A DNA stretch of 7,799 nucleotides from Okeania sp. (GTDB lineage: Bacteria > Cyanobacteriota > Cyanobacteriia > Cyanobacteriales > Microcoleaceae): contig NZ_JAYKGW010000064.1 in NCBI RefSeq assembly GCF_035285525.1, positions 1 to 7,799 on the forward strand, read 5' to 3'. The notes under the pieces are model-generated. The model made no database searches and was not told where the DNA came from. It saw nothing but the letters and a program-made list of their open reading frames with translations. This document shows positions 511 to 7,652 of the stretch, in pieces. Within the stretch, counting starts at the first letter, position 1; every line of letters starts with the position of its first letter. The position numbers and the translations under genes are program-made.

Positions 511-1455
511 ATGGCAACAACTACTTTAGGTAAAACAGACATAACTGTTAATCCAATTTGTATTGGTACTTGGTCTTGGGGCGATACACTTTTTTGGAAT
601 TATGGCAGTAACTATGGAAAAAATGAAGTAGAAAATGCTTTTAAAACTTCCTTAGAAGCTGGCATAAATTTCTTTGATACTGCCGAAGTTTATGGTAATG
701 GTTTATCAGAAGAATTGCTCGGCAAATTTATGCAAGAAACTGAACAACCTGTGCAAATTGCTACTAAATATGGTCCTGTACCTTGGCGGTTTTTTCCAGA
801 GTCCGTTGCTGATGCTGTAACTGCTAGTTTAAAAAGATTAATGGTGCCAAAAGTTACTCTTTATCAAGTACATTGGCCGTTCACTTTTTTTATGAGTCAG
901 GAAACTTTATTAAATGCTTTAGCAGATGAAGTGAAACAGGGTAGAATTGCAGCGATTGGTGTTAGTAATTATTCTGCCGATGAGATGGTTCAAGCTTCAG
1001 AAATTCTAGAAAAACGAGGAGTAATATTAGCAACAAATCAAGTCAGATATTCTTTGCTTTCTCGTCAAATAGAAACTAAAGGAATTTTGCAGAAAGCTAG
1101 AGAATTAGGTGTAACAATTTTAGCTTATAGTCCTTTAGCTCAAGGATTATTAACAGGCAAATATACTGTCGAAAATCAACCTATAGGTGCTCGTAAATTT
1201 GATTCTCGTTTTCAAAAGATTGGTTTAGAAAAAATTGCTCCTGTCATATCTTTGTTAACAGAAATTGGCGAAAAATATGACAAAACTGTGGCACAAGTTG
1301 CACTTAATTGGTTGGTTTTTCAAGATAGTGTAATTCCCATTGCTGGTTGTAAAAATGCCGAACAAGTTCGACAAAATGCTGGGGCGATAGATTGGGAAAT
1401 GACTCAAGAGGAATTTGATAGATTAGAGGAAATTACTCGTCCTTGGTTAAGTTGA
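511..1455 (+). CDS. Aldo/keto reductase family oxidoreductase (314 aa)
   Basis: The ORF has an ATG start. The AKR catalytic tetrad sits in its usual contexts: D56 and Y61 in FFDTAEVYG, K86 in IATKYG, H121 in YQVHWP. The C-terminal IPIAGCKN...Q segment is typical of the cofactor-binding end of AKRs. Confidence 0.93.
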   Translation: MATTTLGKTDITVNPICIGTWSWGDTLFWNYGSNYGKNEVENAFKTSLEAGINFFDTAEVYGNGLSEELLGKFMQETEQPVQIATKYGPVPWRFFPESVADAVTASLKRLMVPKVTLYQVHWPFTFFMSQETLLNALADEVKQGRIAAIGVSNYSADEMVQASEILEKRGVILATNQVRYSLLSRQIETKGILQKARELGVTILAYSPLAQGLLTGKYTVENQPIGARKFDSRFQKIGLEKIAPVISLLTEIGEKYDKTVAQVALNWLVFQDSVIPIAGCKNAEQVRQNAGAIDWEMTQEEFDRLEEITRPWLS

Positions 1456-1472
1456 TTGAATCCCCCTAAATC

Positions 1473-1494
1473 CCCCTTTGAAAAGGGGACTTTG
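1473..1494 (+). terminator. Candidate intrinsic terminator of the aldo/keto reductase gene
   Basis: The hairpin cccctt-tgaa-aagggg (1473-1488) lies 18 nt after the stop codon and is followed by acttt. The U-tract is short, so this call is weak. The stronger hairpin at 1535-1553 has no T-run after it. Confidence 0.3.
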
Positions 1495-1569
1495 AGTTGA
1501 ATCCCACTTTTCCCAGGGGAACTTTTTCTTGACTCCCCCCTTTCAAAGGGGGGCAGGGGGATTCTGAGC

Positions 1570-1577
1570 GCGATCGC
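1570..1577. repeat. HIP1 octamer GCGATCGC
   Basis: Exact match to the highly iterated palindrome typical of cyanobacterial genomes. Confidence 0.9.
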
Positions 1578-1658
1578 AATGTCTAAAATCCCCCTGAATT
1601 TCCCTTGGAAAGGCAGACTTTAAGTGTTGGTGGGTATTTTCTTTAGTGCTTTCTTTGA

Positions 1659-1877
1659 AGTGAAATTAATAGAAACCTTATTATCAGCACTGATACCAAA
1701 TTCAAAAGTAAGATTGTTTGGCAAGAAACCTTAAAGGAAACTATTCTTAATTTGCTCGAAAATAAGGAAGATGAAATTATTGTATCTGAAGCGATGAAGG
1801 AATTAAAAAATGCTGGTGGCAATCCCCAAAAAACCAAATGGTTAGACTGGAATCCAGTTAAAAATGAATGGGATTAA
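1659..1877 (+). pseudogene. 5'-truncated copy of a small antitoxin-like ORF, paralogous to 3457-3639
   Basis: My own translation of the frame that is open from the TGA at 1656-1658 gives SEINRNLIISTDTKFKSKIVWQETLKETILNLLENKEDEIIVSEAMKELKNAGGNPQKTKWLDWNPVKNEWD*. The only in-frame ATG is at 1794, and the repeat cluster 1458-1640 abuts the 5' side. Positions 1779-1890 align without gaps to 3547-3658 at 102/112 identities. Confidence 0.5.
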
Positions 1878-1910
1878 AGAAACCCGGTTTATTCAAGAAA
1901 CCGGGTTTCT
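1878..1910. terminator. Perfect 13-bp-stem hairpin made of two copies of the palindromic agaaacccggtttct repeat; possible bidirectional terminator for the convergent genes
   Basis: agaaacccggttt (1878-1890) and aaaccgggtttct (1898-1910) are exact reverse complements separated by the 7-nt loop attcaag. The hairpin starts 1 nt after the TAA at 1875-1877 and lies about 155 nt past the stop of the minus-strand gene. No clear U-tract is present. Confidence 0.45.
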
Positions 1911-1960
1911 AGCTTCGTTAGTTGAGTAGTGGACTATTTCATCTAAAACAGTCCATTAGT

Positions 1961-2027
1961 TTTTAACTTGAAAATTCTTAATGCATGAATTCAATAGCTT
2001 TTAACTGGAAAATTCTTAATCCATGAC
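1961..2027. repeat. Imperfect direct repeat of about 28 bp, in two copies
   Basis: ttttaacttgaaaattcttaatgcatga (1961-1988) resembles ttttaactggaaaattcttaatccatga (1999-2027, one extra base). The repeats lie in the 3' flank of the minus-strand nuclease gene. A small inverted repeat ggact...agtcc is at 1931-1954. Confidence 0.7.
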
Positions 2028-2065
2028 TTTTTAATTTTGACTTTTGAATTTAATCTAAAGAAAAA

Positions 2066-3139
2066 CTATATCAGTTCAATCAGCTCTAAAAATTCATCTA
2101 CAACTTTCCTGGGATTATTGTAACAAACTTCTGAATCAAAACGAAAAACTCTGATACCATTCCTTTCAAAATCTCTTTCTTTTTGTTGTTCTTCTACTCG
2201 TATTTCAGGTCCATGATAGACACCATCTACTTGGATAATTGCATATTTCTTACGATGAAAAACTAAGAAATCTGCCTGTTGATTTTCACGCCCTTTTTTA
2301 GTTGTAAGTCGAACAGCACTTTTAGGTAAAAAAAGTAAGCCTCTTCTATCAAGTTCTTCTGCTATTTTAACTTCTGAGTGGGAACGAAATTTAATATTTT
2401 TCCATTGAATTACATCTTCTGCAAATCTAGAGTTATTTAATGATTTTGAGATGTTATTTGAGATGTTATTTGAGATATTAATTATATCTAAGTTTGGGAC
2501 ATCGAGGTTTTGAATATCAAATATTCCTTTGCTTTTTGTGTAATCACAAAGAACTCTCCAACAATGTAATAATTCACCTCTATTAAAAGAATTACTGCTT
2601 TCTATATCATGTAATTCATCATAATTTTGATAGGAGTATTCTGGATACGGATTTAAAAATGTTTTGGCTTCAGGTACAAAAAATTCATCATACATCAAAT
2701 TTTTGGTAAACCACCAATCATTATCCATTACTAAGTAAACACTCTCCATAAAAGAAGACAAATTTTTTCTTAGCTCTACTGGTATTTTCTCTATTGTATC
2801 TTCTATTAGATTTACATTTGAGTTTCTTTGATGGTCAAAGGGGTTAAAAATGTCAAATATTCCTTTGGTTTTTGTGTAATTACAAAGAACTCTCCAACTA
2901 TATAATAACTTACCTCTATTCCACCAATTTTTACTTTCTAAATTAAATAATTTTTCATAAAATAATTCATCATATAATTTTGCTTCATTATAGTCATACA
3001 TTGGAAATGGTTGTAAAAAAGTACCTTTAATTTCTTTGGCTTTCCTTTTTGTGTTCTCCCAGTCAATCTCAAACACGAAATAAAAATATTTCATAAATTC
3101 AGACAAATTTGTTTTTAAATCTTTTGGTATTTCAACCAT
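2066..3139 (-). CDS. Hypothetical protein (357 aa) with a tandemly duplicated N-terminal module of unknown family, an NIS-repeat linker and a C-terminal DUF559/Vsr-like PD-(D/E)xK endonuclease-fold domain
   Basis: The ATG at 3139 is preceded by AAGGAG (plus-strand ctcctt, 3147-3152) with a 7-nt spacer. Module copy 1 (aa 4-97) and copy 2 (aa 119-209) share IP..L..NLS.FM...Y.V...DW..TK and NRG.LL..WRVLC.YTK.KGIFDI. The C-terminal part (about aa 246-357) is FRSHSEVKIAEELDRRGLLF...ADFLVF...IIQVDGVYHG...ERDFERNGIRVFRFDSEV. This follows the S..E..L..G, DF, E.DG.H, R...G..V.RF..EV pattern I recognise from DUF559/Vsr-like nucleases. Confidence 0.85.
   Translation of the reverse strand: MVEIPKDLKTNLSEFMKYFYFVFEIDWENTKRKAKEIKGTFLQPFPMYDYNEAKLYDELFYEKLFNLESKNWWNRGKLLYSWRVLCNYTKTKGIFDIFNPFDHQRNSNVNLIEDTIEKIPVELRKNLSSFMESVYLVMDNDWWFTKNLMYDEFFVPEAKTFLNPYPEYSYQNYDELHDIESSNSFNRGELLHCWRVLCDYTKSKGIFDIQNLDVPNLDIINISNNISNNISKSLNNSRFAEDVIQWKNIKFRSHSEVKIAEELDRRGLLFLPKSAVRLTTKKGRENQQADFLVFHRKKYAIIQVDGVYHGPEIRVEEQQKERDFERNGIRVFRFDSEVCYNNPRKVVDEFLELIELI
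2448..2483 (-). repeat. In-frame 12-bp microsatellite (gagatgttattt x2 plus a degenerate third unit) encoding the NISNNISNNIS linker
   Basis: Units are 2448-2459 and 2460-2471 (identical) and 2472-2483 (gagatattaatt). They map to aa 221-231, between the duplicated modules and the nuclease domain. Confidence 0.85.
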
Positions 3140-3206
3140 ACTAATTCTCCTTATTTACCATCATCCCAGTTGTGAAAGCTTTGCCTTCTAGACTTCGTCC
3201 ATTTAG

Positions 3207-3235
3207 ATATTAGACTTGTCGCTTTATAACTCCAA
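3207..3235 (-). promoter_or_regulatory. Candidate sigma70-type promoter of the nuclease gene
   Basis: On the minus strand, TTGGAG (3230-3235) is followed by an exactly 17-nt spacer and then TAATAT (3207-3212). This would give a 5' UTR of roughly 60 nt. Confidence 0.3.
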
Positions 3236-3277
3236 AAAAACTGGCACACCCTGGTTATATAAGGATTTTAGCTTTTG

Positions 3278-3325
3278 AACTGCTCAACCCTCTAGAATGA
3301 CTGCTATGTCTTAGTTTGAGCAGTT
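3278..3325. other. Perfect 10-bp inverted repeat in the divergent intergenic region
   Basis: aactgctcaa (3278-3287) and ttgagcagtt (3316-3325) are exact reverse complements with a 28-nt loop. They are nested inside a second 8-bp inverted repeat, ttgtcgct (3215-3222) / agcgacaa (3340-3347). Confidence 0.6.
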
Positions 3326-3456
3326 TTATCCACCTATTTAGCGACAACTCTATTATACCAAATCTGCTTTACTAAGGAAAAACTCAGTTGACTTACAAAT
3401 AGCACTATAATTGAGAAAAAGCATTTTAAAAAAAAGATGGTAATACCATTACCGAT

Positions 3457-3639
3457 TTGCCAGCAACCTTAAAATTTGTGAGATTTTTGGTGGATTCTCA
3501 AGGCAATAAAACAGCAGTACAATTGAGTATTACTGACTGGGAGACGATTGTATCTGAAGCAATGAAGGAATTAAAAAATCCTGGTGGCAACCCCCAAAAA
3601 GCAAAATGGTTAGACTCGGATGCGGTTAAAAATGAATGA
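3457..3639 (+). CDS. Small antitoxin-like protein (60 aa from the TTG start); possibly decayed, start uncertain
   Basis: The start codon in the track is TTG (3457). An in-frame GTG at 3478 would give MRFLVDSQGNKTAVQLSITDWE..., which looks like the N-terminus of Phd/YefM- or RelB-style antitoxins. No in-frame ATG exists and no clear SD is present. Relative to copy 1659-1877 it lacks a 16-codon segment (LKETILNLLENKEDEI). No toxin partner ORF lies downstream. Confidence 0.45.
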   Translation: MPATLKFVRFLVDSQGNKTAVQLSITDWETIVSEAMKELKNPGGNPQKAKWLDSDAVKNE

Positions 3640-3710
3640 GATTAAAGAAACCCGGTTTCTGGGTTCAGAGTGCGGTTAAAAATGAATGAGATTAAAGAAA
3701 CCCGGTTTCT
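3621..3710. repeat. Perfect 40-bp direct duplication (period 50 bp) of the small ORF 3' end plus the palindromic repeat
   Basis: tgcggttaaaaatgaatgagattaaagaaacccggtttct occurs at 3621-3660 and again at 3671-3710 with no mismatch. Confidence 0.95.
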
Positions 3711-3728
3711 TTAAGAAACCGGGTTTCT
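3696..3728. terminator. Second perfect 13-bp-stem hairpin of the agaaacccggtttct family
   Basis: agaaacccggttt (3696-3708) pairs with aaaccgggtttct (3716-3728) across a 7-nt loop. The architecture is the same as at 1878-1910. It lies between the convergent small ORF and the DUF1501 gene. Confidence 0.45.
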
Positions 3729-3831
3729 GGGTTCGTTATAATAAACCTATACCCCGATCAAAAAGAAACCGGGTTTCTGGGTTCGTTAGAGTTTCTAGCT
3801 TCGTTACAATAAACCTATACCCCCATCAAAA
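3715..3831. repeat. Nested tandem repeats of agaaaccgggtttctgggttcgtta, including a duplicated copy of the DUF1501 3' end
   Basis: Unit A is 3715-3764. Unit B (3765-3831) equals unit A plus an extra gagtttctagcttcgtta. Positions 3733-3763 match 3801-3831 at 29/31, so the last 8 codons plus stop of DUF1501 (FDGGIGLL*) reappear 68 bp beyond the real stop as FDRGIGLL*. Confidence 0.85.
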
Positions 3832-5030
3832 GAATAACCAGGAAACACTTGTGCTATTCGCGATCGCTCCATACCAAGATGCTGTTCTAAAACACTAGAA
3901 ATCACACTCCGAAAATCCGTCGTCACTGCCAAATCCCGTCCCTGGAACAACTCCGATTCATCCAAACCAGGCCATTCTCCATAAACCTGACCCCCACGAA
4001 CACCACCACCTAAAACCCACATTACATTACCATGACCATGATCCGTACCACCATTACCATTTTCCTTAACGGTGCGACCAAATTCTGACATTACTAAAAT
4101 CACCGTATCTGAATAAAGGGAATCCAACTCCCGAACCAAAGTAGCTAAACCGTTCCCCAGAGGTTTCAATCTTCTTGCTAAAATACCTTCACTGTTGCCT
4201 TGGTTAATGTGAGTATCCCAGTTACCCAGAGCCAGAAATCCTAACTGAGTTCTGGAGTCACCCACCATTATTTGAGCTAAATTTTTCGCATCAGCAGCAA
4301 AACCTTTTGGTGGTGGAGCGCCACCGGAAGCTTCTTCCATTTCTTTCTCCAAGTCAGCAAGTAATAAATCTCTAGCTTCACGACCTTCCTGGTAAACTGT
4401 ACTCAGTTCATCATTACCTTTGTATAAACTATCGAATGCTCCAGAAACTCTAGGACGATCTATCGGCAACCGACGAGTTGACTTTCTACCTGTCGCGAGA
4501 TTAGCAACTGGCATTTCACCCATGAGAATGCGGGGTGGTGTATCCCCTAAGTTAACTGCTTGAGTAGGTCTATCTTTAGGAAGATTTCCTAACAAACGAT
4601 TCATCCATCCATCAAGAATTTTTTTATTGCCAGGAACACCTGTTTCCATATAATATTGAGCATCAAAATGGGAGCGAGTATCATTGTTGGAACCGCAAGC
4701 GTGAACAAAAGCTAAACTGCGATTTTGCCAGAGAGGCATAATATTTGCGAGAGCGGGATGTAAACCAAATTGATTATCTAAATTTATAGCTCCGTTTGGT
4801 TCTCCAGGAGCAGGAATTGCAATTTTTGGTCGCACATCATAATAAGCGTCTTCTTGATGGGGAATAACTACACTTAATCCATCAACTGCTCCTCGGAGAA
4901 AAACCACAATTAATCTTTTACGATTATTGGTTTCAGCTAATCCTTTGGCGACCCAACCATGAGTACCAACAGAGATGATTCCGGAAGCAGCTAATAAGCT
5001 GGTTAATTGTATAAAATTACGTCTTTTCAT
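3804..5030 (-). CDS. DUF1501 domain protein (alkaline phosphatase/sulfatase-like superfamily) with a twin-arginine export signal
   Basis: The N-terminus MKRRNFIQLTSLLAASGIISVG contains an RR motif followed by a hydrophobic stretch. The motifs GNWDTHINQ and SEFGRTVKENGNGGTDHGHGN are those I recognise as DUF1501. GAGG lies 4 nt upstream of the ATG. A HIP1 site is inside the gene at 3860-3867. Confidence 0.9.
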   Translation of the reverse strand: MKRRNFIQLTSLLAASGIISVGTHGWVAKGLAETNNRKRLIVVFLRGAVDGLSVVIPHQEDAYYDVRPKIAIPAPGEPNGAINLDNQFGLHPALANIMPLWQNRSLAFVHACGSNNDTRSHFDAQYYMETGVPGNKKILDGWMNRLLGNLPKDRPTQAVNLGDTPPRILMGEMPVANLATGRKSTRRLPIDRPRVSGAFDSLYKGNDELSTVYQEGREARDLLLADLEKEMEEASGGAPPPKGFAADAKNLAQIMVGDSRTQLGFLALGNWDTHINQGNSEGILARRLKPLGNGLATLVRELDSLYSDTVILVMSEFGRTVKENGNGGTDHGHGNVMWVLGGGVRGGQVYGEWPGLDESELFQGRDLAVTTDFRSVISSVLEQHLGMERSRIAQVFPGYSFDGGIGLL

Positions 5031-5076
5031 AATACCTCAAAAGTTATAGCGCTACTTGAATCGGGAATAGGGAACA

Positions 5077-5430
5077 CAGAAGGTGGGAATAGGAAAGAAT
5101 AATTGATAATCACTATATCTGAGTCATTGCGACTGGAACCGAGTGACCTGAGATTGCTTCCCTTCGGTCGCAATGACAGAACGATTTGTTATATTCAATT
5201 CCGTTACGGTTGGAACCAAATGTCATTATTAATTGATAGTTTACCTTTCGTCCGCAATAGACATATCCAGAAAGGTGGGAACAGGAAGAAATAATTGATA
5301 ATTTATGGATAAGAATTGATTGGATATTTTATTTTTGGAGATGTCTAATGACAGAACGATTTGTTATATCGAATTCTGTTACGGTTGGAACCAAATGTCA
5401 TTATTAATTATTAATTAATAGTTGATCTTT
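5077..5430. repeat. Imperfect tandem duplication of about 180 bp, made of two shared blocks
   Basis: Block 1 is cagaaggtgggaataggaaagaataattgataat (5077-5110) versus cagaaaggtgggaacaggaagaaataattgataat (5268-5302). Block 2 is 63 bp, 5172-5234 versus 5347-5409, at 60/63 identity. Both copies continue into tagtt.a.ctttc, which resembles the sequence at the DUF1800 stop (5781-5790). Confidence 0.8.
5123..5177. repeat. 11-bp-stem hairpin resembling a cyanobacterial small dispersed repeat
   Basis: gtcattgcgac (5123-5133) and gtcgcaatgac (5167-5177) are exact reverse complements. The loop contains gagattgcttcccttcg. Translation gives the RLLPFGRNDR-type peptide that I recall from spurious ORFs over such repeats. 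Confidence 0.6.
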
Positions 5431-5535
5431 CCATCATTTCCGGACTACCTAACATTAAAGCAGCTTGTCAATCACCTGGATTCTAATAAGCTTATTAATT
5501 GTATAAAATTTCCTCTTTTCATAATACCTCAAAAT
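5427..5535 (-). pseudogene. Chimeric relic in which a copy of the DUF1501 start region is fused to a copy of the DUF1800 3' end
   Basis: Positions 5427-5484 match the DUF1800 3' end (5787-5844) with 2 mismatches in 58. Positions 5483-5535 match the DUF1501 start region and RBS (4991-5043) with 4 mismatches in 53. On the minus strand the relic reads MKRGNFIQLISLLESR*, compared with MKRRNFIQLTSLLAASG in the real gene. Confidence 0.8.
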
Positions 5536-5782
5536 TAAGTTATCAATTATCAGTTACAGCAAATTCCAAATACATTAAGTAAAGATTTCATTATTAGTCG
5601 TCTCAGTGCGATTTTTCGGGAACTGTGCATCTTGCTCCCGTGAGTTTACCTCTCAATCAGTTATCATTACCTCCTATGAATTACAGTTTGAATAGTAAAA
5701 TTATTGTAGTGCGCGCATCTTGCCCGCGACAATAGAAAATTAGAGATTAAAAAAACTCTTTCATTATCAATTATCCATTATT

Positions 5783-7264
5783 TTACCTTTCCATCATTTC
5801 CGGACTACCTAACATTAAAGCAGCTTGTAAATTACCTGGATTCTGATTAATTACAGCTTCAGTTTGAGGAGAAAAATTATTTCCTAATGTCACCCTTAGT
5901 TGCTCATGATTTATTGGTTTAGGTTTCCCTTGATTTAACTGCCCACGAGAGATAATTGTCGCAAAGCTAGTTCGACGAATTATAGCATCAGAATTTAACC
6001 AAGCATCTCTAGTATTTTTATAACCGTCAGGAGTAGCACAGCTATAAAGAGGCATTCCTAGTTGGGATAACATTCCATTAATTCTACCAAATTTAGGTTG
6101 GTCAATACCCGCAGCTCTCACTACAGAAATAATATATTGATAAGGAGTTTTAAATTTATTGCCGTAGTATTTTTCATCCCAAAATTCATTACTAGCAAAT
6201 AAGGTTCCTAATACAGAACGAATGTCACCTTTAGTTTCTTGAAATCTTTTAGCTAATTTATCAATTAGAGTTTCTGGAGGTTCATCGGCAACAAAATATT
6301 GAGCTAATTTATAACTAATAAAACGAGCAGTAGATGGATGATTTGCCAAAATATCTAAAGCTTTTTCTCCTTCTGCCATTCCACCTCCTTTTATGGGTAT
6401 TCCTAAGAATATTTTATCCTTATTATCATGGCGGTTGGCATCAAACTTAAATCCACTGCCATCTCCAGTACGACGTTGTATTCCCCAACCTGTAAAAATC
6501 TTGGCTAAAGTAATAATATCTTCTTGTTTATAACCTCCATTTACCCCCAGAGTATGAAGTTCCATAAGTTCCCGGGCATAGTTTTCATTTAACCCTTTAA
6601 ATATGCCCCGAACACCTTTACTTCCTGGTGCAGTATTTAGCCAATTATCTAAATAGAATAACATGGCTGGATGATGGGCCGTTGCTCCTAATAAATCCCG
6701 AAAATTACCAAGTGCATAAGGTCGAATTGCATCTCTTTCATAAGTTCCTATCCAAAGACGAACTGCTCGCCCTTTTGTAACAGAAACATTGAAGTGATTA
6801 AACCAAAAGTTAATCATTACTTCTTCCAGTTGTCTATTACTAGATATGGCTCTGATTAAGTTAGCTTGTATAGCTTCGTTGACAACTTTTTTTGTCCCCT
6901 GACGTCTGGCTTTTTTTTCTTTTTCAGTTGCTTGTTTTTTTTGGTTTGGTGGCAGAGGACCGTACTGTTGAAAAAGCTGAACAGGAGTTAAATATAAAGT
7001 TTTTAAAGTAGATAATTTGTTTGTGAATTGTTGAGATTCTTTAATAGTTTCTGGTCTCAGTTGAGATTGAACATAATTATCAATTCCCATAGATCTAACT
7101 TGTTGTATATCTCCTGGTCTAGGACCAAAAGTCAAACGATTTAAAACATGGATTGTTTGACTATTAGTAGATTGACTATCGGTGTAGCTAGGACTTGATA
7201 ATCCTAACAAAATCATTAACCCTAATAGCAAAGATATAATCCAGTACCTAGAGGCTTTTATCAT
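5783..7264 (-). CDS. DUF1800 domain protein (493 aa) with an N-terminal hydrophobic signal or anchor
   Basis: LNRLTFGPRPGD near the N-terminus, NFWFNHFNV, and ENYARELMELHTLGVNGGYKQEDI..FTGW are motifs I recognise as DUF1800. AGGAGA (plus-strand tctcct, 7273-7278) lies 8 nt upstream of the ATG. The hydrophobic stretch YWIISLLLGLMILLGL is near the N-terminus. Confidence 0.9.
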   Translation of the reverse strand: MIKASRYWIISLLLGLMILLGLSSPSYTDSQSTNSQTIHVLNRLTFGPRPGDIQQVRSMGIDNYVQSQLRPETIKESQQFTNKLSTLKTLYLTPVQLFQQYGPLPPNQKKQATEKEKKARRQGTKKVVNEAIQANLIRAISSNRQLEEVMINFWFNHFNVSVTKGRAVRLWIGTYERDAIRPYALGNFRDLLGATAHHPAMLFYLDNWLNTAPGSKGVRGIFKGLNENYARELMELHTLGVNGGYKQEDIITLAKIFTGWGIQRRTGDGSGFKFDANRHDNKDKIFLGIPIKGGGMAEGEKALDILANHPSTARFISYKLAQYFVADEPPETLIDKLAKRFQETKGDIRSVLGTLFASNEFWDEKYYGNKFKTPYQYIISVVRAAGIDQPKFGRINGMLSQLGMPLYSCATPDGYKNTRDAWLNSDAIIRRTSFATIISRGQLNQGKPKPINHEQLRVTLGNNFSPQTEAVINQNPGNLQAALMLGSPEMMER

Positions 7265-7511: not shown

Positions 7512-7567
7512 CTTTGTAACACAGCCTGGCTGTACAAGCAAGATTCTGAGTCTTTGTAACACAGCCT
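7512..7567. repeat. 16-bp perfect direct repeat ctttgtaacacagcct, two copies 40 bp apart
   Basis: Copies lie at 7512-7527 and 7552-7567. The first runs into the palindrome acagcc-t-ggctgt (7521-7533). Confidence 0.85.
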
Positions 7568-7652
7568 TCTTTTGCTGTAACAACCTGGAAGGTTGTGTTA
7601 CCAAATACAGCCTTCTTTTGCTGTAACAACCTGGAAGGTTGTGTTACCAAAA
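7561..7652. repeat. Perfect 46-bp tandem duplication, each unit containing an imperfect hairpin
   Basis: acagccttcttttgctgtaacaacctggaaggttgtgttaccaaat occurs at 7561-7606 and 7607-7652 with no mismatch. Each unit contains gtaacaacc-tggaa-ggttgtgttac. Confidence 0.95.

Follow-up and report, generated by a model that had tools for sequence, protein, structure and literature searches.

A tandemly repeated, uncatalogued module joined to a DUF559/Vsr-like nuclease domain in the cyanobacterium Okeania

What is a predicted nuclease domain doing behind two tandem copies of an uncatalogued module? The question is raised by a gene of Okeania sp., a filamentous marine cyanobacterium. The stretch of DNA analyzed here (“the window”) is a whole contig of 7799 bp, and the gene is a complete, free-standing open reading frame (ORF) at positions 2066-3139 of the minus strand, flanked by an aldo/keto reductase gene and a DUF1501 gene. 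It starts with ATG and encodes 357 amino acids (aa) plus a stop codon; the protein is identical to NCBI WP_324235853.1, “hypothetical protein [Okeania sp.]”. A first-pass annotation of the sequence saw an orphan protein with a duplicated N-terminal module and a C-terminal nuclease domain, and floated a single-gene defense or selfish-nuclease role, which remains speculative. The reading that we prefer, tentatively and at somewhat less than an even chance, is that of a modular conflict-type nuclease gated by a promiscuous accessory module and now decaying.

The protein consists of two module copies, R1 and R2, a linker, and the nuclease domain (Table 1). The AlphaFold model of the full-length 357-aa chain has a mean predicted local distance difference test (pLDDT) score of 80.8. 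The linker contains an in-frame microsatellite (2445-2480; 12-nt period x3, Tandem Repeats Finder) that codes for NISN repeats. Searches with the whole protein gave no match in NCBIfam or PHROGs, 0 families at E<=1 among the PADLOC-DB 2.0 models, and noise only with phmmer against the PDB.

The C-terminus (aa 241-357) is a DUF559/Vsr-like restriction-endonuclease-fold domain, i.e., a predicted nuclease, as the first-pass annotation had proposed. Three lines of evidence support this assignment. In Pfam, DUF559 (PF04480) matches aa 290-354 marginally (E=2.7e-4; 21.2 bits against a cut-off of 20.6), REase_MTES_1575 scores under its cut-off, and closer relatives of the domain reach 24-30 bits on DUF559. 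A profile built from nine domain sequences finds the DUF559 protein of PDB entry 3hrl (E=1.7e-4) and, weakly, PvuRts1I. Finally, the domain is modeled with a pLDDT of ~90-97, and its Foldseek matches are exclusively PD-(D/E)xK nucleases: 3hrl (TMt, the TM-score normalized to target length, 0.71), the catalytic domain of I-Bth0305I (3r3p; TMt 0.66), and AF1548 (1y88), all with probability 1.00, and Bax1, Hjc, and the R2 endonuclease domain with probability 0.99-1.00.

The motifs expected of such a domain are in place, namely D290 in ADFLV, IIQVDGVYH at 301-309, and ERDFERNG..RF. In the model, D290 lies just ahead of a predicted β-strand and Q303-x-D305 on the following strand, the usual sites of the PD and (D/E)xK motifs; the counterparts of D290 are D51 of Vsr and D196 of I-Bth0305I (PMC3239194). 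The predicted catalytic residues D290, D305, H309, and D323 are retained. The complete active-site set (D of PD; E and D of E-x-D-G; H; downstream D) is interrupted at a single place, E303, which is Gln. The first-pass annotation had placed the motifs and this substitution correctly: all eight other relatives have Glu, making Q303 unique to the window protein among nine aligned sequences, and the neighboring invariant Leu is also replaced (L302I). In classical enzymes, Glu-to-Gln changes at this motif position, e.g., E111Q in EcoRI, abolish cleavage while DNA binding is kept. In the I-Bth0305I study, the position aligned with Phe62 of Vsr is described as an “additional strongly conserved acidic residue” (PMC3239194). 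Judged from the sequence, Q303 suggests attenuated catalysis without proving inactivity, because Vsr has Phe rather than an acidic residue at this position and is nevertheless active (PMC3239194). Within a known family, the nuclease half is a marginal member with a variant active site.

A few other proteins also contain the C-terminal ~125 aa, and those with a named source are all cyanobacterial. Their N-termini are DnaA_N-like (P0003-5), pentapeptide repeats (P0006), or unassigned domains (P0007-10), so that the subfamily is small, mostly cyanobacterial, and equipped with interchangeable N-termini. The pentapeptide-repeat relative is encoded near an MmeI-like restriction-modification gene, XisI, and PIN/MazE genes.

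The N-terminal half is a true tandem duplication, as first described. R1 (aa 1-~100) and R2 (aa 114-~213) are 47% identical (BLASTP E=7e-27), share the core NRG.LL..WRVLC.YTK.KGIFDI, and, in an hmmsearch, are picked up as two separate domains (together aa 6-212) by the A7 profile, whose construction had included both of these repeats. The duplication is also visible in the DNA, where 2497-2624 and 2833-2960 are 79% identical at an offset of 336 nucleotides (nt). Synonymous divergence (dS) between R1 and R2 is 0.25 in the 3' core half and 0.98 in the 5' part; the lower value in the core hints at gene conversion between R1 and R2 or at a duplication history that was staggered. Nearly all residues conserved in the module family are retained in both copies. 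Profile-profile comparison gave no sign of a relationship between the module and the nuclease domain.

The module itself belongs to a sizeable family. A first profile, made from four repeats (R1, R2, and their two counterparts in the ortholog described below), was searched against 1.84 billion representative proteins and found 34 relatives at E<1e-3, nearly all of them 80-120 aa long and aligned over almost the whole module; an enlarged profile found 58 further relatives. The “orphan” label must therefore be dropped, with ~100 module relatives in the sample and a small family for the nuclease domain as well. Among the 101 module proteins collected, 88 are stand-alone (median 104 aa), nine carry a partner N-terminal to the module, two extend into a C-terminal tail, and two, this protein and its ortholog, have the tandem N-terminal arrangement. 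None is longer than 357 aa, and hence there are no large NTPase fusions. Genome matches come from Cyanobacteria, Acidobacteriota, Alpha- and Gammaproteobacteria, Nocardia, and Planctomycetes.

We propose the name “NNW-NRG” for this family, defined as a ~85-aa unit with three predicted helices and the common signature F..FELVFdnDWefT ... GTFLnP.v.DESNNW.NRG.LL..YR.L, to which both repeats align. The family is acidic, with a median isoelectric point (pI) of 4.55 and a pI <5.5 in 52 of 56 members. AlphaFold with the family alignment gives a module model with pLDDT 82.9 and a predicted TM-score of 0.74, in which R2 is a three-helix unit: a helix at 6-33, a long conserved loop, and helices at 58-68 and 70-88. 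The loop, of 24 residues, carries the TFLNP and DESNNW motifs, and the conserved residues (D-W...T, T-F-x-P, E-S-N-N-W-x-N-R-G) lie in and beside it. The first-pass annotation could not assign the module to any family, and broader searches lead to the same result. Free-standing module proteins have no match in Pfam, NCBIfam, PHROGs, or PADLOC; scanning each of the 56 alignment members against Pfam at E<=10 reveals no recurring family; the module profile finds no relative among PDB sequences; and Foldseek finds no match with E<1 for the module model in the PDB or BFVD. The module is thus an uncatalogued family of small, acidic, helical proteins present in several bacterial phyla and on some viral contigs.

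The fusions of the module are diverse. In P0047, a TIR domain precedes the module. The PADLOC model “TIR-TM” matches this protein over aa 1-186 (E=6e-79), that is, over the TIR half only; the possibility that the model also covers the module was ruled out by splitting the protein, since the isolated module matches 0 PADLOC families. In P0047, a TIR-TM-type protein, the module takes the place of what the model has at its C-terminal end. Its gene (L009, 134-997) is convergent with a neighbor at 1192-3912 that encodes a PDC-S06 AAA_13 ATPase, a candidate defense gene with a CPLC zinc-hook-like motif. Four further proteins have an HNH domain followed by the module (P0064, P0065, P0072, P0108), and one of these is encoded two genes from an Mrr restriction gene. 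The fourth partner, after TIR, HNH, and DUF559, is MazF: in an alphaproteobacterial metagenome-assembled genome (L016, 5294-6222 of OZ219787.1), a PemK/MazF domain (E=1e-22) reads stop-free into the module as a single 280-aa ORF, with a mazE antitoxin gene of its own upstream (E=1.6e-17 to PDB 7d2n). Independent fusions have joined the module to no fewer than four unrelated enzymes, toxic or nucleolytic.

Some of the free-standing modules sit on phages, on a P4-like island, and in islands rich in toxin-antitoxin genes (Table 1). The module on the satellite-type island represents a ~130-aa subfamily with the N-terminus MANQIS... and a C-terminal HPCGRV motif. A tblastn search with a typical module found no copy in cultured phage genomes or in plasmids. 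Tiny ORFs upstream of the module at three loci are mutually unrelated.

How is the Okeania gene itself evolving? The sole other copy, L001, lies on a 7.8-kb contig of assembly GCA_905169125.1; it is full length, with 85% DNA and 75% protein identity. No further ortholog was found in protein databases, and a scan of Joint Genome Institute (JGI) metagenome contigs returned only the L001 contig again. In L001, the start codon has changed from ATG to ATA and the linker contains a nonsense change (TCA>TGA). At L001 3360-3365, two microsatellite units are missing, and the TGA is at the same spot in the linker as window positions 2445-2480. Between the window and L001, the ratio of nonsynonymous to synonymous substitution rates (dN/dS) is 0.65 overall (Fisher p=0.05), 0.75 for the modules (p=0.32), and 0.53 for the nuclease domain (p=0.12). 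When changes in the nuclease domain are polarized with outgroups, 12 are specific to the window and three to the ortholog (p=0.035). The window-specific changes include P289A and E303Q, and E303Q and L302I fall at columns that are invariant in the eight other relatives.

The window ORF has remained open. A stop codon would arise from ~6.2% of point changes, and the probability of seeing none is ~0.03 for ~55 neutral substitutions; because of this, the window copy is not long dead. Its amino-acid constraint is weak. As far as sequence can tell, the nuclease arm carries potentially disabling changes in both lineages, and the locus is probably losing nuclease function, a trend that the first-pass annotation had not anticipated. 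The Okeania locus is an example of how such genes decay, with an active-site substitution in one lineage and a nonsense change plus loss of the start codon in the other.

The surroundings of the gene bear on its history. The block common to the window and L001 consists only of a RelB-like antitoxin gene and this gene, with different flanks, consistent with the variable context envisaged in the first-pass annotation. In L001 (2024-2500), a complete 79-aa antitoxin gene is followed by a short RelE/ParE-like ORF, whereas the antitoxin remnant in the window has no toxin partner. A second 3' fragment of the antitoxin gene lies downstream of the nuclease gene, which is therefore bracketed by 112-nt direct repeats (Table 1). 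A toxin-antitoxin locus is thus decaying alongside the nuclease gene. The RelB-like gene was considered as a partner of the nuclease protein and rejected, being divergent from it and paired with its own RelE/ParE-like ORF in L001.

Each 112-nt direct repeat is followed by palindromic AGAAACCCGGTTT...AAACCGGGTTTCT elements. The palindrome AGAAACCCGGTTT(n)AAGAAACCGGGTTTCT occurs four times (1878-1910, 3642-3660, 3696-3728, and 3763-3788), always just after antitoxin copies or fragments; a terminator hairpin and a small dispersed repeat are both possible.

Two further expectations about the gene concerned its composition and its expression signals. It had been called a compositionally foreign cassette. 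However, its GC content at third codon positions (GC3) is 0.207, host-like and within the 0.18-0.27 of neighboring genes; the low overall GC (0.286) stems from amino-acid composition, and recent foreign origin is not indicated, because GC3 is like that of the neighbors. The strong Shine-Dalgarno sequence that had been noted is there, AAGGAG 7 nt before the ATG. The “plausible promoter” fares less well: a promoter scan performed at chance level (seven sites against 8.2 expected), with none upstream of the gene. An extended -10 element, TGGTATAAT, is readable by eye at 3352-3360 on the minus strand. An Rfam scan of the window found no families and no intron.

Building on the observed anatomy, folds, family memberships, fusions, contexts, and substitution pattern, the gated-nuclease reading would work as follows. 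The effector would be the C-terminal DUF559/Vsr-like PD-(D/E)xK domain, tethered by a floppy linker to the two module copies. The module would act as an accessory gating domain rather than a DNA-recognition domain, because the family is acidic and because the module is also found on TIR and on an RNase, besides DNases; for the same reasons, the DNA-binding role considered in the first-pass annotation is unlikely. One common partner or ligand might be bound by the conserved loop residues, since conserved polar and aromatic residues cluster in and beside the long loop, and the two tandem copies might form an intramolecular pseudo-dimer. The modules would hold the nuclease off, or couple it to a partner, until a trigger releases DNA nicking or cutting. 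In the Okeania copy, the nuclease arm would be attenuated, with Gln at the second acidic active-site position and PD reading AD. TIR, HNH, PD-(D/E)xK, and mRNA interferase domains are the typical repertoire of regulated immune effectors, and fused module relatives adjoin PDC-S06 and Mrr genes. A simple cis-antitoxin role is argued against, because the MazF fusion has its own antitoxin. A bolder version, which we consider unlikely, would make NNW-NRG a new promiscuous conflict-system regulator that binds one trigger (a phage protein or a small molecule) through a loop pocket and switches at least the TIR, HNH, MazF, and DUF559 enzymes; free copies on phages and satellites would be decoys or sponges, and the Okeania protein would be the first tandem-sensor version.

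Several observations weigh against gating. PADLOC has no model for this protein, and the searches found no partner gene, signal-producing enzyme, or structural analogue of the module; an all-against-all BLAST of flanking ORFs found no neighbor conserved across module loci. R1 is basic, unlike the remainder of the family. The HNH partner is not necessarily a toxin, as the HNH half of the fusions comes from a ~100-aa family of phage HNH proteins, which is very common and in IMG/VR never occurs together with the module. The DnaA_N-like relatives of the nuclease domain are encoded among housekeeping-type genes, in an identical arrangement in three assemblies. Vsr is active with Phe at the E303 position, so that Q303 is no proof of inactivity. 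Lastly, the module dN/dS of 0.75 is indistinguishable from neutral, and the protein may no longer function.

That last point leads to the rival explanation to which we give most weight while still finding it doubtful, namely that the gene is a relic of a once functional nuclease fusion, now drifting and with no current function in Okeania. The dN/dS values would fit, as would the excess of window-specific changes in the nuclease domain (an otherwise invariant Glu among them), a sole ortholog that lacks the ATG and carries a nonsense codon, the failure to find any further copy in protein databases or JGI metagenome contigs, and the degraded toxin-antitoxin genes in a repeat-filled region. A drifting gene is harder to reconcile with a 357-codon ORF that is intact at 29% GC, given the low probability of escaping stop codons, or with an intact Shine-Dalgarno sequence and ATG, nearly all conserved family residues in both modules, and the retention of D290, D305, H309, and D323. 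The acidity of the module allows another interpretation, that of a fused toxin-immunity unit in which the modules mimic nucleic acid in the nuclease cleft in cis, with the free phage copies acting as anti-nuclease (anti-restriction-like) proteins. The family is indeed small, helical, and strongly acidic, the substrates of every fusion partner (HNH, DUF559, MazF, TIR) are nucleic acids or nucleotides, phages and a satellite-like island carry stand-alone copies, and one nuclease relative has pentapeptide repeats instead. The pentapeptide-repeat fold of MfpA/Qnr mimics DNA. We nevertheless regard this as decidedly unlikely: the MazF fusion comes with a MazE antitoxin of its own, conservation falls on N, R, W, and G and not on a generally acidic surface, R1 is basic, and no known DNA mimic or colicin immunity protein emerged as a structural match when Foldseek was run against the PDB and BFVD.

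The remaining rivals take the nuclease domain as their starting point. If the two modules recognized a long DNA target that the nuclease domain cuts, the gene would be a free-standing selfish homing-type endonuclease. Its layout parallels that of I-Bth0305I, in which repeated motifs at the N-terminus likewise precede a Vsr-like domain at the C-terminus (PMC3239194; Foldseek 3r3p), the HNH-module fusions resemble phage HNH homing enzymes, direct repeats of antitoxin gene ends bracket the gene, and the block of antitoxin and nuclease genes sits in different surroundings in the two contigs. What makes this highly improbable is the acidity of the module family and its occurrence in fusions with TIR and an RNase; the lack of an intron, an intein, or a host gene that has been interrupted, the L001 antitoxin gene being intact beside the ORF; the absence of any Pfam match to NUMOD or another DNA-binding domain; and a total of only two known copies, rather than the multi-copy spread of a homing element. 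We give hardly any credence to a Vsr-type housekeeping mismatch-repair nuclease working with an unlinked cytosine methyltransferase, as proposed for the Caulobacter DUF559 protein VsrA. DUF559 proteins can be tied functionally to an unlinked methyltransferase (PMC12907096), and the fold resembles Vsr; against this stand the lack of a Pfam Vsr match and of the Zn-site motif GCFWHGH.C, the very narrow distribution with variable N-termini and a dead ortholog, the replaced active-site Glu, and the location in a variable region rich in repeats and toxin-antitoxin remnants.

Comparison with known systems helps to place the gated-nuclease reading. Among DUF559 proteins, such as Neisseria NGO0050 (PDB 3hrl) and Caulobacter VsrA, the fold is the same as that of the C-terminal 117 aa here, and so is the order of motifs: an S..E helix, (P)D, E-x-D-G-x-x-H, and D..R...G..v.RF. 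Typical DUF559 proteins are single-domain or attached to a helicase, whereas this protein has a marginal Pfam score, Gln in E-x-D-G, and two unrelated modules ahead of the domain. It differs from Vsr (PF03852) in having no match at E<=1, no GCFWHGH.C, and no methyltransferase in the 7.8-kb contig. The bipartite layout is shared with I-Bth0305I (EDxHD, 3r3p), a family with an acidic residue at the Vsr Phe62 position and the Foldseek match given above. Here, however, the acidic residue is mutated, there is no intron or intein, and the N-terminal repeats are not NUMOD and have an acidic character instead of a DNA-binding one.

In CARF- and SAVED-effector fusions and CapRel-type fused toxin-antitoxins, a non-catalytic module is likewise joined to interchangeable toxic effectors, drawn from the same effector repertoire. 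The NNW-NRG module is far smaller (~90 aa, helical), no CARF, SAVED, effector-associated domain (EAD), Pfam, or PADLOC model matches it, and no signal-producing enzyme or conserved partner was found nearby. Small helical domains on diverse effectors are also familiar as effector-associated domains and ABC-3C C-terminal domains in the classifications of the Aravind laboratory. One TIR-module protein beside an AAA_13/PDC-S06 ABC-type ATPase is a further point in common; unlike those systems, the 101 module proteins include no large NTPase or STAND fusion, and the L009 ATPase is not in an operon with the TIR-module gene. Type II toxin-antitoxin pairs differ in that the RelB-like gene is divergent from the ORF, not co-directional. 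Time and again, promiscuous effector-partner domains carried by mobile elements have proved to be sensors, immunity factors, or anti-defense proteins. With the nuclease half being ordinary, the useful result is the module, a new uncatalogued family with diverse fusions and carriage on mobile elements. The family also offers a concrete and cheap set of constructs, in which free and fused modules can be compared with TIR, HNH, MazF, and DUF559 readouts.

Table 1. Features of the window around the nuclease gene, and settings of module genes at other loci. Positions are those of the window unless a locus is named.
Feature	Position or locus	Strand	Remarks
Shine-Dalgarno AAGGAG	3147..3152	-	7 nt upstream of ATG; kept in ortholog L001 (read from sequence)
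Module copy R1, aa 1-100	2840..3139	-	Family motif retained: IDWENTK, GTFLQP, ESKNWWNRG; basic, pI 8.6
Module copy R2, aa 114-213	2501..2800	-	DNDWWFTK, KTFLNP, ESSNSFNRG; acidic, pI 4.5
Disordered Asn/Ser-rich linker, aa 214-240	2420..2500	-	AlphaFold pLDDT <50 for aa 216-240
DUF559/Vsr-like PD-(D/E)xK nuclease domain (predicted), aa 241-357	2069..2419	-	Pfam, profile match to 3hrl, AlphaFold and Foldseek
Codon of D290, “PD” aspartate, predicted metal ligand	2270..2272	-	Motif A-D here, P-D in close relatives
Codon of Q303 (CAA), Glu position of E-x-D-G	2231..2233	-	Glu in 8/8 other aligned relatives
RelB-like antitoxin remnant, 60 aa	3457..3639	+	Divergent; internal deletion relative to the 79-aa L001 protein; Pfam E=2e-4, under cut-off
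3' fragment (3' half) of same antitoxin gene family	1752..1877	+	Downstream of nuclease gene; 86% identical to L001 2265-2408
Left copy, 112-nt direct repeat	1779..1890		91% identical to right copy, 1768 nt apart
Right copy, 112-nt direct repeat	3547..3658		Brackets gene with left copy
Free-standing module	L003		Run of small co-directional ORFs without Pfam matches; Lambda_Bor gene nearby
Free-standing module	L006-8		Adjoins HTH_3 and SieB genes
Free-standing module	L010 (Sphaerospermopsis)		Between HigA-like ORF (read by eye) and PIN gene
Free-standing module	L019 (IMG/VR contig)		Between portal-like ORF (read by eye) and Mu_F gene
Free-standing module	L020, L021 (IMG/VR contigs)		Upstream of primase/helicase-like ORFs (read by eye)
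Module in cargo position	L026 1-6058 (GCA_964953095.1)		Integrase-AlpA-Toprim/DUF3987 island, P4-satellite type

The rest of the window is a rearranging, repeat-rich region. A 57-nt tandem repeat (5.1 copies, 98% identity) occupies 1-290 at the start of the contig, upstream of the aldo/keto reductase gene, and GC-rich repeats with a ~32-nt period (AATCCCCCT...GGGGA) form a local GC peak just past that gene, at 1459-1625. Apart from the aldo/keto reductase gene, a pair of DUF1501 and DUF1800 genes (3804-5030 and 5783-7264, minus strand) makes up the only further coding content of any size. The 750-nt spacer between them (5031-5782) is built of duplicated copies of both gene ends and of itself; the duplicate pairs are 4991-5042/5483-5534, 5403-5487/5763-5847, 5172-5241/5347-5416, and 5080-5110/5272-5302. 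Toward the end of the contig, 7561-7651 is a perfect 46-nt tandem duplication with an internal inverted repeat (ACAGCCTTC...GAAGGTTGT).

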